A stretch of DNA of 26,451 bases. Source: Chthoniobacteraceae bacterium. Its GTDB lineage: Bacteria > Verrucomicrobiota > Verrucomicrobiia > Chthoniobacterales > Chthoniobacteraceae. The first letter of the stretch is position 1. Each line of letters begins with the position of its first letter. Shown one piece after another: positions 6,001-15,000 of this stretch. The position numbers are program-made. The stretch covers positions 1-26,451 of the forward strand of contig JANNWY010000092.1 in the NCBI GenBank assembly GCA_031409335.1. The letters run 5' to 3'.

Positions 6001-9000
6001 CGCGTCACCGACATTCCGCCGAGCGAAAGCGGCAAGTTTCTTTACGTGCGCAATCTGCATCGGGGTCGATGAGCACCCGCATTCTCTACATCCACAACAG
6101 CGCAGACATTTACGGCGCGAGCCGTTCGCTGGTGCGGCTGCTCGGCGTGCTCGACCTAGGAAAATTCGATCCGCTCGTGATGCTCCCGGAGGAGGGGCCG
6201 CTGGCGGAGCAGTTCCGCGCGCTGCCGGTGCGGGTGATTATTTTTCCGGCGCTGAGCGTGATTGACCGGGCGGTTTTCAAATCGTGGCGGCTGCCGTTTT
6301 TTCTGCTCGGCATTCCGGTCTCAGTGCTCCGTCTCTGGCGAATCCTGAAGCGCGAGAAGATCGACCTCGTGCATACGAACACGGGCGTGGTGCTTTCGCC
6401 GGGGCTGGCGGCGAGGATGGCGGGTGTGCCGCATGTCTGGCATATCCGCGACTGGTTTCAGGAGTTCGCGGGGTTCTGGCGGTTTTATGAAAAGTGGATG
6501 CGTGCTTTTGCGACGCGAATCATCGCGGTGTCGGGACCGATCGCGGGGCAGTTCACGGATCGGGCGAAGGTTTGCGTGATCAATAACGGGTTCGATCCGG
6601 CGGAATTTGAGCTGGGTGATCCGCGTGTGGGTGTGGCGTTCCGCGAAACCTACGGGCTCGGTGCAGCACCGGTGGTGGGGTGCGTCGGGCGAATCAAATT
6701 GCAGCGCAAAGGGCAGGAGGTTTTTCTTCGGGCGGCAGGGATTTTGAAAGCTCGCGGCATTTCCGCGAAGTGGCTCGTCGTTGGGGCACCATTTCCGGGG
6801 AATGAATCGCACCTCGAAGCCCTGCGCGACATCGTGCGCGAGCACCATCTGCGCGACGACGTGGTTTTCACCGGCGAGCTGAAAGACCCGCGCCCGGCCT
6901 ACGCGGCGATGAGCATTTTCGTGCTGCCCTCCGCGCAGCCGGAGCCCTTTGGCGGCGTGGTGATGGAGGCGATGTGCATGGGGCTTCCCGTGATCGCGAC
7001 GAACATCGGCGGCTCCACCGAGCAGGTCGCCGATGGCGAAAGCGGCTGGCTCGTCCCACCGAATGATCCCGCGGCGCTCGCGGACAAACTGGAAATGCTG
7101 CTGCGCGATGAGGCGCTCCGCAAATTCTTTGGCGAAGCGGGACGGCGGCGCATCGCGGAACGCTTCACGCTGAAGGGCATGGTCGAAAAAATCACCGCCG
7201 TTTATGACGAATGTCTGAAAAACCGGCGTTGAGGAACTCACGCAAAGGCGCAAAGACGTCAAGATTCTGCCTGGCACTTCTTCCTTTGCGCCTCTGCGCC
7301 TTTGCGTGAGAAAATTCCGAGCTGCCCATGAACCCGAATCCCATCGTTTCCATCCAGAGCCTCGTCGATACCGGCTATCCGGCAGTGATCGAAAAGACGC
7401 TGACGGAGATTGGTTTCTTCCGCGATGTGCCGGCCGGCGGGCGCGTTTTTCTGAAGCCGAATCTGACGTTTCCCACGTTCCGGCCGGGCGTGATGACTTC
7501 GTTCGATTGCCTGAGCGCGGTGACGAAATGTCTGATCGCACACGGCTATCGCGTGGTCATCGGCGAGGCAGACAGCGGCGGATACAACCGGTTTTCGATC
7601 GACGAAGTTTTCAAAGGGATGGGCATCGACCAGCTCGCGAAGGACACCGGCGCGGAGATTGTGAATGTCAGTTTCGCCGAGCCGGAGTGGCTGGAAATCC
7701 GCGCGGGCTGGCGGACTTTGCGCGCGCCTTTTCCGAAGATGATGCTCCGCGAGATCGACGCTTTCATCACGCTGCCAGTGCCGAAGATTCACATGAACAC
7801 GCTGGTTTCCATGTCGATCAAGAACCAGTGGGGCTGCATCCAGGAGCCGAATGAGCGGCTGAAGCTGCATCCGTATTTCGCGGAGACGATGTATGAATTC
7901 GAGACGCGGCTGCCGCGCGCGTATTCGATCATCGACGGGCGCTACGGGCTGAATCGCACGGGGCCGATGCTGGGCGATGTGGTGGATTTTAATTTCGTGC
8001 TCGGCTCGAACGATCTCGTCGCCGCCGACCGCGTGTGCTGCCGCATCATGCAAATCGACGAGGCCGATGTGGCGTATCTGCGTTATTTCAAATCGCGTGG
8101 CTGGTGGACGCCGTGGGAAAGCATTCGCCTGAACGACGACCCGGCGCGTTTTCAAAAGGGAAAATTTTTTCTGGAAAGAAAATGGACCGATTATCCCGGC
8201 CTCATCTGCTTCAACAACGCCTTCCTCGCCTGGCTCGGCTACCACTCGCCGCTCGCCGGTTTCGCGCACTGGCTGCTCTATTTATTCCGCGAGCCGTTTT
8301 ACGAATACGACAAGGAAAAGTCGAAGCTGCGCGACGAGGCGAAGAAGTAGCGCGGCTTTTCTTAAACACAGAGGCACGGAGGACACAGAGGTTCACAGAG
8401 ACGGAAGACGACCCTGACTTTCTCTGTGCAACTCTGTGTCCTCTGTACCTCTGAGTTAAAGTTCTTTTCCGGCCACGGCGAAAGACCGTTTGCGCCCACC
8501 ACGGCGCGCTGTTAGAACCTGCGCACTTTTCGCCCGGCCATGCCCAAAGACCCTTCGCTTCACAAAATTCTCGTCATCGGCTCCGGCCCCATCGTCATCG
8601 GGCAGGGGTGCGAATTTGACTACTCGGGCGTGCAGGCTTGCAAGGCGCTGAAGGAGGAGGGCTACACGGTCATCCTCGTGAACTCGAACCCGGCGACGAT
8701 CATGACGGACCCGGAATTTGCGCACCGGACTTACATCGAGCCGATCACGCCGCAGATCGTGGAGCTGATCATTGAAAAGGAAAAGCCGGACGCGCTGCTG
8801 CCGACGCTGGGCGGGCAGACGGCGCTGAATTGTGCGATGAAACTTTTTGAATCCGGCGTGCTGGAAAAGCATGGTGTGAAAATGATCGGCGCGAATGCGG
8901 CGGCGATTCACAAGGGCGAGGACCGGCAGGCTTTTAAGGACGCGATGATCAAGATCGGCATGGATATGCCGCACTCCGGGACGGCGCACACGATCGAGGA

Positions 9001-12000: not shown

Positions 12001-15000
12001 AGCCGTCTTCCCCTTCATCCGCTTCCCCGGCATCGACATCGTGCTCGGCCCCGAGATGAAATCCACCGGTGAAGTGATGGGCATCGACCGCACGCTCGGC
12101 CTCGCTTTTGCCAAATCGCAAATGGCCGCCGCGCCGCCGCTCCCGGCCAAAGGCAACATCTTCATCAGCGTTGCCGATCGCGAAAAAGGCCGCGTCGCCG
12201 ACTTTGCAAAAGGCTTTGTCGAAATGGGCTTCACGCTCTTCGCTACCAGCGGAACCGCCGCCGCACTCAAGGCCGCGGATGTTCCCGTAAAAAAACTGCA
12301 CAAGCTCAACGAAGGCCGCCCCAACGCGCTCGACATGATCAAAAACGGCGAACTCGCCATGATCGTGAACACACCGAGCGGCAAAGTCGCCCGCGAGGAC
12401 GAAGTAAAAATCCGCAGCACCGCGACCGGAAATCGCATCCCCGTCTTCACCACCCTCCGCGGAGCCCGCGCCGCGCTCGAAGGCATCCGCGCCGTCCGCG
12501 AGCACGGCCTCAGCGTGAAGCCGCTCCAGGAGTGGCATCCAAAGTAGCGCGCCAAAAAACTCGCACTACTCCCGCATTGTCCGCTTGCCGGATGAAGGGT
12601 CGGCCATCCTTGGAGCCTGTCTGCACTTTACCGCCCTAAACACAGAGGTACAGAGGACACGGAGGATCACAGAGAATTCTCCGATACGGATTCCTCCTCT
12701 GTGTTTCTCGGTGCCCTCTGTATCTCTGTGTTTCAAAAAAGCTAAACAGGCATGAAGGGCTCTATCGGTGCCGCCGCGCCAGCCGATCAGCCCGAGCAGG
12801 CCCATCGCGGTCGCCACGCTCCCCGGCTCCGGCACGGGCACCACTTCGCCGAAGCCTCCGGTGAACCCCGAAAATCCCGGCGCGAAAGGCAGGAGCGTCG
12901 AGCCCGCGTCGCTGTAAAATTTGATCTGCAAAAGCTGACTGGCCACGAGGCCGGTCCCGCTGCCGTTGCCGAAATAAAGCTGATCGGTCCCGCTGCCGGT
13001 GTTCTGATTTCCCGACCAATTCCAAATGCTGAGCGTGCCCGTCCACAAAGCCGCGATGGCAGGCGCGGAGCTATCGGCAAAGCGCAGCACGCTCGCGCCC
13101 GCGCCCATGTCGATGACCGAACTCGCGGACAGCGTGAGCGTGCCCACCGTCTCCGAAAGCCCGCCCGTGCTGAGCTTCCCGCCCGCGAGGGTGAACCCAG
13201 CGGCGTCATTCACACGATCACCCGTCCCGCTCAAAAGCAGCGTGCCTCCCGTGTTGATGATGACGCCGCTGGTCCCCCCGAGCGCGCTGCTGCCCGCCGC
13301 CTCCAGCACCCCCCCGCTGACCGTCGTCCCCCCCGTGAAAGTATTCGCGCCGGTCAAAGCGAGCGTGCCCAAGCCGGTCTTGGTCAGCGCGCCGTTTTGC
13401 AGCGAAGCGGAGATGCGCAGATCGACCGCCGCCGAGCCGTCATGCACCGAAAAAGTGCGCGTACCGCCCAAGTCAATCGCGCCGGGGTTCGTCCCGCTGC
13501 CGCCGCTCAGGATTTGCGCGGTGCCGGAGGTCAGCGTGTTGTCCACCGTCACATTGTTCGTGAGCAGGATTTTGCCGGGCACCGAGTTGGAGGAATCCAG
13601 CGTGATCGTCGGGCTGCCCGTGCCGCCAAAAGTCAGGCCCGCGCCCGCATTCGTCACCGCGAGCACCGATCCCGTCGTGCCGCCATTCACGGTAAAAGTA
13701 CCGCCGGTGAGCGTGACGGCCGGTGCCGCGATCTGCCCGCCATTGCTCAGCAGCGTGGCTCCCCCAGTTTGGCTATAGGCATTGGCCCCCGGAAGCGTGA
13801 GCGTCGTCCCCGCGCCATCCACGGTCACATTGCCGGAGTTAGCGAGTGCGCCAGCCGTCGTCAGGTCGCGATTGTTCTTCAATGTGAGGTTGGCCTGAAT
13901 GCCCTGATTGCTACTGAGCACGGTCGTGAATTTGGTAAAGCTCGATCCCACGCCATCGAGCGTCACGCTGCCCTGGTTCGTCGTGATATTGCTGCCCGTC
14001 GTGATGTTGATGATGGCACCGTTGCTCACGTTCCAAGTCCCGCCGATGAGGTCAGTGCCGCTGTGCTGCGTCACGGCGCCCGACAAGGTGAGCGTGCCGC
14101 TCTGCACGTCGACCGTGCCGGTGTTGTTGAAGGTCGAACCGAAAGTGGTCGTCCCGCCCCCGGCGCTCTTGGTGAAGGTGCCCACGTTGTTGAAGATCGA
14201 GGTGCCGAGGCCGCCCTGGTTGTTCAGAAAGCTGCCGTCAAAGTTCGTGTCAAAGGTCGCCCCGAGCTGGTTGTTGAAGACCGACCCGTTGCCCGTGCTC
14301 AACTGGCCCGCCGTCCACATCGCCGCCCCGGTGTTGTTGAGCGTCCGCCCGTTCAGCGTTTTGGTTGACCCAGCCAGACTCAGCCCGCCATTCGCATTGA
14401 ACGCGCCGGGACTCGCGCCCGTCGCGCCGATTATCCCGCCGCTCCACGTGAACAACTCATTCGTCGTTAGTCCAAGGTTTCCCGTCACCGTCCCCGTGGA
14501 CATGGTGAACTTTTGGATCGTGATGTTCTGATCGAGCGTGACGGTGCTGTTGACGCCGAGGACCGCATCGTAGGTCGGGGTCGGCAACCCGTTATTCGGG
14601 GACGTGCCGGGCGCGCCGGGCGTGGTCCAATTCGCGCCGGAACTCCAGACAGCGCTCCCACCCGTCCAGGTGGAAGTAAAGGTGGCGGCGAACAGCGGCG
14701 CGGCGGAGAAGGCGAGCCCCGCCAGAGCGAGGCGGCGCGCGGCATTCGCTGATCGGATGGAGAGAGAGGCAGATCGTTTTTTCATGGTGTGATTTTGTGG
14801 AAGTGAAGGCGTCATTCCTGCCCTCCACGCATCCGCCAAAAGCGAACCGCGCGAAGGCTGGCTTTCTTCTTTTGCCAACGCAGCGCGGAAAGTTTCCGAA
14901 AATCTTTTCCCACTTTGCGCCTGGCGCGCGGTGTGGCAGCGTGCGGGCAAATGTTCACCGACCCGACAGACGAATGGCACGAGTGGTACCGCCTCGCGCC

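Follow-up and report, generated by a model that had tools for sequence, protein, structure and literature searches.

To our knowledge, RAYTs are regarded as domesticated, stand-alone, immobile genes, and an enzyme-encoding element is expected to need splicing in order to reside in an essential gene. Inteins, group I introns with homing endonucleases, and IStrons all carry a mobile enzyme in frame in essential genes, with patchy occupancy of fixed sites and conflict with the host tree. A RAYT family located inside host genes runs against both standing views, as it appears to move and to be tolerated as an internal domain of 240 residues.

Several described systems come close to this family. The TnpA-REP/RAYT subclass 2.7 REPtrons have stand-alone genes as members (Quentin 2018, PMC6006769). 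E. coli TnpA-REP is a monomer (Messing 2012, PMC3479197; structure PDB 4ER8), and REP-dependent single-strand cleavage and strand transfer are known for the E. coli and Marinomonas enzymes. In Groups 2 and 3 of the REPIN-RAYT systems (Bertels and Rainey 2011, PMC3116915; Bertels 2017, PMC5581495; bioRxiv 2021.07.10.451892), the RAYT is stand-alone, extragenic, and congruent with the host tree, and the REPINs are almost exclusively extragenic. Finally, intragenic GTAG-19 REPs have been described in Opitutus terrae (Di Nocera 2013, PMC3733652), and the RPEs of Rickettsia are likewise close.

The window analyzed here comprises 26,451 nucleotides of contig JANNWY010000092.1 from a Chthoniobacteraceae bacterium; its features are collected in Table 1. 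An earlier note had reported a single carB with a transposase inserted in frame, and this is what the assembly holds: the translated carB frame is free of internal stops, and carA is also present and intact. E. coli CarB aligns to the protein in two blocks, residues 1-742 and 747-1057, that flank the insert; the position between these blocks is called site B here. The two arms of the element are 46 nt each, inverted, and 80% complementary, and the left one encodes a linker of low model confidence. The RAYT domain between them has no stop codon and no in-frame ATG upstream of its conserved core.

Table 1. Features of the carB locus (positions within the window)
Feature	Position	Strand	Details
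carB, carbamoyl-phosphate synthase large subunit	8540..12547	+	1335 aa including insert; sole copy in assembly
CarB site A loop, oligomerization domain, near E. coli residues 475-485	9926..10066	+	empty here and in same-genus G061
REP-RAYT-REP element in frame, CarB site B	10818..11549	+	732 bp tag to tag = 244 codons
Left arm	10818..10863	+	GTGG tag 10818-10821; 8-bp hairpin 10822-10840; second 7-bp hairpin 10847-10863; z -2.95
RAYT/TnpA-REP HUH domain	10874..11497	+	aa 779-986; His901 (11240), His903 (11246), WQD motif, Tyr961 (11420)
Right arm, inverted orientation	11504..11549	-	GTGG tag and two hairpins on minus strand; z -4.45

Could the insert be an artifact of assembly? This was rejected, given that homologous CarB fusions exist, that an identical 823-bp contig (10726-11548) containing the left junction occurs in two sequencing runs of one study, and that the same junction is found in a second lineage (L151, L153). 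For the right junction, coverage is limited to an overlap of 30 bases with the adjoining contig. Precise excision within the population was looked for as well and not seen. Among the joints listed, only one spans the whole insert (10812 to 11567), and it is not an excision because 25 other letters between its sides match the empty allele of another species (L016); the check was made on contigs, which drop rare variants.

What is the inserted domain? Pfam places Y1_Tnp at CarB aa 887-965. NCBIfam REP_Tyr_transpos (NF047646) scores 64.4 bits (E 1e-17), below its curated cut-off of 80, with the match limited to model positions 26-136; this family has a longer N-terminal helical insert. The HUH motif and catalytic tyrosine of the class 2 enzymes (TnpA-REP/RAYT) are present as MPNHVHVL and YIANNP, the latter conforming to Y-x-x-x-N-P. 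H123, H125, W162, R172, and Y183 are invariant across 52 aligned rows, and the catalytic residues of the domains from long proteins are kept in 115 of 116 (first His), 116 of 116 (second His), and 116 of 116 (Tyr). The predicted model of the insert (pLDDT 91.5) folds as a RAYT over residues 16-208, with 4ER8 ranking first of 48161 structures (Z 14.7, rmsd 2.8, 138 aligned) and a further fold match to the IS608/ISDra2-type TnpA 2VHG (Z 11.6). A search of the PDB with the single insert sequence returned no match; a profile was needed, and it again gave 4ER8 as the best hit (E 5e-7). The predicted C-terminal half of CarB can be aligned across the insert with residues 538-1071 of the E. coli enzyme (Z 26.4; rmsd 4.2 over 502 residues), bearing in mind that AlphaFold has seen CarB.

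The domain thus defined resembles subclass 2.7 and E. coli TnpA-REP in its NHVH and WQ motifs, a D at the equivalent of E100, an R at those of H101 and R104, Y-x-x-x-N-P, a length of ~210 aa, and long GT[AG]G-tagged REPs on both sides that, as in REPtrons, recur in the genome as tagged hairpins. Against the published description of subclass 2.7, NHVH, WQ, and GTGG arms are present and YIANNP departs at one position from YI[LR][NQ]NP. Those genes stand alone, however, and here the coding sequence lacks both a stop and a conserved start and forms a domain within another protein. IS200/IS605 TnpA (IS608, ISDra2) has the HUH-Y1 fold and hairpin ends with tetranucleotide guides in common with it but carries Y-x-x-x-Q (PMC6006769) and inserts precisely; here, the ends are symmetric, insertions replace host codons, and the NCBIfam IS200 score is 17.3 versus a cut-off of 55. 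With REPIN-RAYT systems, the family shares inverted REP doublets of ~100 to 160 bp, spread genome-wide and matching the REPs beside a RAYT, but its RAYT is intragenic, lies at many loci, and conflicts with the host tree. The O. terrae REPs encode peptides of the same GTGVPPV, TGGTPVP, and AGGAPAL types and have HrpA, UvrA, UDP-glucose uridylyltransferase, HypF, and N-6 methylase as common hosts, but they carry no transposase. In the part of the Di Nocera 2013 supplement (PMC3733652) consulted, neither a transposase-bearing intragenic copy nor a carB entry was found.

The insert is not confined to one place in CarB. CarB fusions at site A make up 117 of the 120 closest long homologues, whereas the insert here is at site B. 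The metagenome CarB inserts to which the earlier note had attributed 60-68% identity are 61-69% identical, but they lie at another loop. Site B is also occupied in L076, L151, and L153, and L081 has a third site, after which the CarB sequence resumes. Site A of L034 likewise holds a RAYT, of an unrelated subfamily (35% identity). The empty site A loop in this genome was considered as a deletion scar and rejected, since same-genus G061 has the same loop. In close CarB pairs, doublets at site B replace ~4 to 6 host codons; junctions are imprecise, and no single cleavage dinucleotide emerges from the bases that adjoin the tags. Testing did not reject one common origin for site B (p-AU 0.057), so multiple origins are not established.

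Nor is it confined to CarB. Related embedded copies occur in ~20 unrelated host families with no shared function, including AlaRS, ThrRS, LeuRS, RecG, ClpB, HypF, XseA, and methyltransferases as hosts split by relatives. In every embedded copy the host frame is kept at both ends, with no stop, and the insertion sites are loops that also tolerate other insertions. The copies that the earlier note had placed in a UDPGP-like gene on contig C107 and in recG were recovered in open frames of 1436 and 953 aa, respectively.

Where a genome has an embedded copy, it also carries REP doublets that match the copy but contain no transposase. SMC, Mfd, UvrA, HrpA, and PKS/NRPS were found again as hosts of the palindrome. 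The earlier note had placed 30 of 45 palindromes inside genes; by our own gene model, the count is 19 of 30 C107-type doublets. Similarly, the six copies assigned to PKS/NRPS become four inside and one at the edge. A second doublet family is also mostly intragenic (5/8), and two others, the recG-type family (0/46) and one more (0/18), lie outside genes. G016 has 123 REP arms that match the variant found on either side of its carB insert, and its stand-alone relative has a different REP. G061 has 62 recG-type arms and, in line with prediction, a RAYT in recG; G049 has no such arms and an empty recG.

What best explains these observations? Probably, the element is an autonomous REP-RAYT cassette (a REP arm, TnpA-REP, and an inverted REP arm) residing in frame within surface loops of housekeeping genes. 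Judged from sequence comparisons, the RAYT-CarB insert is not a static fusion, as it has several sites and hosts and its tree conflicts with that of the host. The best reading is that the cassette is active, lacks a conserved start codon, and would be made as an internal domain of host enzymes. The earlier note had proposed much the same, a REP-RAYT element inside open reading frames in an intein-like niche without splicing, and the ~20 host families, three CarB sites, conserved catalytic residues, purifying selection, and REP expansions matching embedded arms speak for it. The host gene and its loop would supply promoter and start codon, and the cassette would be transcribed and translated with the host, leaving the transposase as a domain on two flexible, palindrome-coded linkers with CarB folding around it. 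If monomeric like E. coli TnpA-REP, the embedded enzyme could still nick and rejoin single-stranded DNA after binding its REP hairpins. Such activity would spread transposase-less doublets genome-wide and, rarely, carry the entire cassette into another loop or gene. Junctions would replace a few host codons, and selection would retain only in-frame insertions at tolerant loops. Recombination in the conserved flanks may swap occupied alleles between lineages, and the cassette may be lost by in-frame collapse of the palindrome.

Does the cassette home? In this rather improbable alternative, nicks made by the embedded RAYT in empty alleles or in its own transposase-less doublets, the latter acting as landing pads, are repaired from an occupied allele, so that the cassette is copied in the way inteins are spread by homing endonucleases. 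Mirror alleles fit it: L036 and L086 have a RAYT at site A and a doublet at site B, and L153 has the reverse. A loop of 36-80 aa is present at site B in 36 of 121 proteins, and in O. terrae a doublet without transposase lies at aa 715-734 of the UTP-glucose-1-phosphate uridylyltransferase (PMC3733652), an enzyme type that hosts a RAYT here. The element also appears replaced at one site in L077/L082 (host dS 0.28-0.31, inserts saturated), and the six filled recG loci among 29 are spread over the tree at five points, four of which have well-supported empty sisters (one fragment, L210, was left out). But none of the 23 empty recG sites has a doublet, which leaves the landing-pad model unsupported there. 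The recG inserts (pS 0.58-0.83) are at or above the host in most pairs, which speaks against a recent sweep; co-conversion beside site B is weak, with one 30-codon dip against G061 in a tree that left out five duplicates and short rows; and occupancy is low, at 6 of 147 carB matches in the order sample.

Alternatively, the insert could be an old, immobile, domesticated domain, derived from a few ancient insertions, kept for some host benefit (for example, as a tethered DNA-binding or nicking module), inherited vertically, and often lost. We regard this as quite unlikely. It accords with published RAYT groups (PMC5581495; bioRxiv 2021.07.10.451892), with purifying selection on the RAYT domain (dN/dS 0.07-0.22 in 13 of the 21 pairs tried), and with the occupation of site A across three families of the order and Luteolibacter. 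Losses are proven by a collapse scar at site A of L056, a tag-hairpin-tag followed by the first RAYT residues. Divergence is deep too. Speaking against the active cassette, most copies are old, their dS usually being 1-2.5 times that of the host. In favor of it, insert dS in L151/L153 is 0.008 versus 0.08 and 0.17 for the host, these being metagenome contigs that may be strain mosaics. Against domestication, the insert tree of 24 taxa (four unparsed or duplicate rows left out) conflicts with that of CarB, the host topology being 292 log-likelihood units worse (AU p 0.002, from 2000 replicates, fewer than IQ-TREE advises). PhnP-like and MqnA/D-like hosts (clade 95/97) nest inside the CarB-resident clade (98/94), the many hosts share no function, and REP expansions are homogeneous. 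The two arms share a stem type in most elements, and this type varies between lineages yet stays self-complementary. The earlier note had raised one old domesticated insert with losses against its own proposal; this objection loses force because relatives sit at another site and the insert and host trees disagree.

Very unlikely is that the insert is removed or bypassed, whether by RNA splicing through paired arms, protein splicing, proteolysis, or an internal RAYT start: the arms can pair across it, many hosts are essential, and an in-frame ATG lies within the arm-coded stretch of 5 of 25 carB elements, but the other 20 have none 13-45 codons upstream of the PHW motif (ATG being the only start counted), Pfam and NCBIfam scans found no Hint domain in the carB protein, no Rfam family matched inside the insert at E <= 1 (a scan of described RNA families, which splicing RNAs of other kinds would escape), host frames stay open through loops that tolerate other insertions, and the predicted model folds both CarB and insert.

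A bolder interpretation of the REP-RAYT cassette, which we hold only tentatively and think doubtful, would make it, next to introns and inteins, a third type of parasite that invades genes. It would be a homing, non-splicing “passenger domain,” an HUH transposase working tethered in essential enzymes (CarB, AlaRS, ThrRS, LeuRS, RecG, ClpB), converting empty alleles or its own doublets at fixed loops and giving rise to palindrome-coded loops in verrucomicrobial proteins. The cassette differs from inteins and introns in that no splicing module was found, in its single-strand HUH enzyme and imprecise junctions, and in its sites, which are variable surface loops rather than conserved active-site motifs. 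In the literature searched, no description of the embedded transposase was found; intragenic REP doublets were already in print (Di Nocera 2013). For the RAYT family itself, under whichever reading, four points are of consequence. (i) A likely mobilizer of the intragenic GTAG REPs of Opitutus can be named. (ii) Occupied, doublet, and empty alleles form a natural series for testing DNA movement by RAYTs. (iii) Insertion-tolerant loops are marked in many enzymes. (iv) The annotation of abundant soil bacteria is affected.

Some further observations concern the doublets. The match between REPs and RAYTs is not exclusive: the arm type occurs without a long carB frame in G162 (11 arms), G186 (7), and G085 (5), and G153 has the insert with only 6 arms. 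Stand-alone enzymes could have made doublets, the assemblies being incomplete; in G000, one recG-type doublet has a stand-alone RAYT from another subfamily ~150 bp away. Avoidance of stop codons as an adaptation was rejected for C107-type doublets, which are as open as shuffles (3.6-3.9 versus 3.6-3.7 frames); the carB-type doublets are more open than shuffles (5.3-5.5 versus 2.9-3.1 frames, n=7). Lastly, the carB of Candidatus Udaeobacter also carries a RAYT insert.

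The window's carB, the only one in its assembly (98% complete), is a single 1335-aa frame; carA is intact elsewhere in the genome. E. coli CarB residues 1-742 and 747-1057 align as separate blocks, which places the insert in a loop (site B) that we take to follow the lid of ATP-grasp domain two. The CarB motifs RPSxVLGGR, HSGDS, MNVQFAV and EVNPRASR are retained. Inverted arms of 46 nt, each consisting of a GTGG tag and then two hairpins, bound the insert, which measures 732 bp from tag to tag, and Pfam and NCBIfam scans place an HUH domain between them. The predicted structure of this domain (pLDDT 91.5) finds its best fold match among 48,161 chains in E. 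coli TnpA-REP (4ER8; Z 14.7, rmsd 2.8, 138 aligned). Two runs from the same study yield an identical contig across the left junction. Frame, two-block alignment, arms and fold match together bear out the earlier note's claim that a transposase sits in frame inside the sole carB, and the element is more dynamic than that note could show. A separate, AACACAGAGG-type family of palindromes (~100 bp) occurs on both sides of carB, with 20 arm matches genome-wide, 19 of them outside our own gene calls; neither a tag nor a cognate enzyme was found.

Which sites in CarB are used? Among the 120 top-ranking long homologues (from 2571 homologues found), 117 are CarBs whose RAYT (TnpA-REP) domain occupies a loop of the oligomerisation domain (site A), and none has it at site B. 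The remaining three are P0002, in which a tandem array of palindrome-coded repeats separates two near-identical RAYT domains, P0003, an N6 methyltransferase holding two separate ones, and a PhnP-like protein. Site B holds a RAYT in the window and in loci L076, L151 and L153, the last being a mirror state with a doublet (paired inverted arms) at A. L081 carries its RAYT at a third site, beyond which CarB sequence resumes, and site A of L034 holds another RAYT subfamily (35% identity). CarB loops lacking a transposase are either short or filled by a doublet, and at site B a loop of 36-80 aa is present in 36 of 121 proteins. The sister allele of the window's carB, in same-genus G061 (support 1.0), is empty there. 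Few loci are occupied: 6 among 147 carB matches in an evenly drawn sample of the order, for which only sufficiently long frames were retrieved, and 3 among 75 in the family. Order-wide tallies, here and for carB-type arms, include one unpublished genome (G203), on which nothing else depends. The fusion is also visible in JGI automatic protein names. The near-identical site-B elements of L151 and L153 differ in tag and stem of the first hairpin (GTGG versus GTGA type), their site A loops are unrelated, and hairpins seem to be exchanged as units.

Sequence comparison suggests that the embedded element moves. CarB-resident RAYTs form a clade (support 98/94) with a subclade of PhnP-like and MqnA/D-like hosts nested inside it (95/97), which implies that copies left carB. 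The insert alignment (24 taxa) rejects the host topology (log-likelihood 292 lower, AU p 0.002, 2000 replicates). The hosts of L077 and L082 are near-identical (dS 0.28-0.31) but their inserts are saturated; between L151 and L153, insert dS (0.008) is below host dS (0.08 and 0.17). At recG, 6 of 29 loci, spread over five places on the tree, are filled. Homing-like conversion is an unlikely alternative, and an immobile domesticated domain is slightly less probable still. Against recent spread, insert dS is mostly equal to or above host dS, and a single origin of site B stays compatible with the data (p-AU 0.057). The embedded domain is kept by selection: in 116 domains from long proteins, picked by similarity, the first His is conserved in 115 and the second His and the Tyr in all, and of 21 insert pairs, 13 gave a dN/dS of 0.07-0.22 (the others saturated, 4; unparsed, 3; near-identical, 1).

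How might the element live inside a gene? We lean towards a REP-RAYT cassette translated in frame within its hosts. The RAYT would be made as an internal part of the host enzyme and would act while tethered there, which is plausible since E. coli TnpA-REP is a monomer (Messing 2012, PMC3479197). In a model of the C-terminal half, which aligns to E. coli CarB 538-1071 across the insert, two low-confidence linkers hold the RAYT domain; CarB is familiar to AlphaFold from its training, and the model therefore speaks to feasibility only. The tag determines the cleavage site (Corneloup 2021, PMC8266576). Doublets replace ~4-6 host codons in close CarB pairs, which suggests ragged insertion, with selection retaining in-frame products. 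L056 records a loss through collapse of the element: it retains a single tag-hairpin-tag palindrome, then the first RAYT residues. Splicing or an internal start is the least probable route, since neither an Rfam intron nor a Hint domain (Pfam, NCBIfam) was found in the carB insert and a conserved ATG is missing in 20 of 25 elements, observations that favour translation together with the host protein.

The range of hosts extends well past CarB. A Pfam scan of 62 proteins of at least 380 aa, from the best 150 of 11,166 representatives (without taxonomy), found host domains on either side of the RAYT in at least 16, including DinG-like helicase, HypF, XseA, RecG, Mur ligase, B12 radical SAM, LeuRS, Gfo/Idh and MmeI/Eco57I methyltransferases. 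In 51 family genomes, frames of at least 750 aa hold 28 of the 150 RAYT matches listed (of 199). Twenty long frames were fetched (19 of the 28 plus one more); NCBIfam names AlaRS (5), RecG (4), ThrRS (3), ClpB (2), LeuRS, BREX PglX and an adenosine-deaminase fusion, most matching as two stretches with continuing model positions, and three further frames are of the UDPGP-like type (one scanned). Distant RAYT loci, largely of other phyla, served as a control: 41 of these 46 end no further than 52 residues from the tyrosine (3 longer, 2 unparsed). G018 (6.1 Mb) has the most REP_Tyr_transpos matches of the 51 genomes, 23. The window genome's alaS (L188) has a carB-type doublet near aa 301; AlaRS of five relatives holds a whole RAYT at another loop.

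The components are all known; this mode of life is undescribed in the literature searched. Intragenic GTAG-19 REPs of O. terrae (Di Nocera 2013, PMC3733652) resemble the present arms in encoding the same peptides in several of the same hosts, with no transposase among the entries consulted. Quentin 2018 (PMC6006769) defines subclass 2.7, reports in-frame REPs inside tnpA-REP genes, including doublets between HUH and Tyr in subclass 2.4, and discarded long fusions. RAYTs are described as stand-alone and immobile by Bertels 2017 (PMC5581495), Bertels and Rainey 2011 (PMC3116915) and bioRxiv 2021.07.10.451892. Searches of this mostly non-subscription literature turned up no account of a RAYT that is translated within host genes; the Quentin 2018 supplements may list such fusions.

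The arms appear to behave as DNA signals. Their stems vary between lineages but remain self-complementary, and both arms of one element are mostly of the same type. The left tag is at codon position 2 and the length is 3n in 26 of 33 elements, most of the other 7 being apparent one-base tag miscalls. The window genome has five doublet families (table), with hosts including SMC, Mfd, UvrA, HrpA, AlaRS, MutS, PBP1c, CzcA and PKS/NRPS. Its recG insert is bounded by recG-type arms; a second copy contains a stop. The arm-insert link is real, though not exclusive. G016, whose insert occupies site A, carries 123 arms of a variant of its own, and another REP accompanies its stand-alone relative. G061 has 62 recG-type arms and a filled recG, and 3 carB-type arms with an empty carB; G049 has no recG-type arms and an empty recG. 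In G045 and G006 recG is filled, yet nothing matches the window genome's pattern. Absent from 124 of the order's 151 genomes, carB-type arms peak in G138 (42, insert present) and G162 (11, no long carB frame), followed by the window genome (7), G186 (7) and G153 (6). One of the three stand-alone RAYTs of the other subfamily lies ~150 bp from a recG-type doublet.

Features of the window and doublets and RAYT copies of its genome (doublets located against our own gene model)
Feature	Location	Number	Remark
carB	C92 (window):8540-12547		
AACACAGAGG-type palindromes	C92:8361-8461, 12638-12733		
ORF with passenger-associated transport repeat	C92:12569-14785 (-)		downstream of carB; unconnected to insert
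Ser/Thr kinase with WD40 repeats	C92:18069-21641 (-)		downstream of carB; unconnected to insert
recG-type doublets		46	inside genes 0
Second-type doublets		18	inside genes 0
C107-type doublets		30	inside genes 19
C23/C71-type doublets		13	inside genes 2, both in RAYT genes
carB-type doublets		8	inside genes 5
Stand-alone RAYTs	C23:11677-12966, C71:2292-3227		own GTGA-tagged doublets in frame between HUH and Tyr
Stand-alone RAYTs, other subfamily	C143:28886-29344, C214:50126-50575, C324:1497-1856	3	
Broken RAYT copies	C209:11255-12015, C96:45838-46194		one frameshifted, one with in-frame stop at contig end
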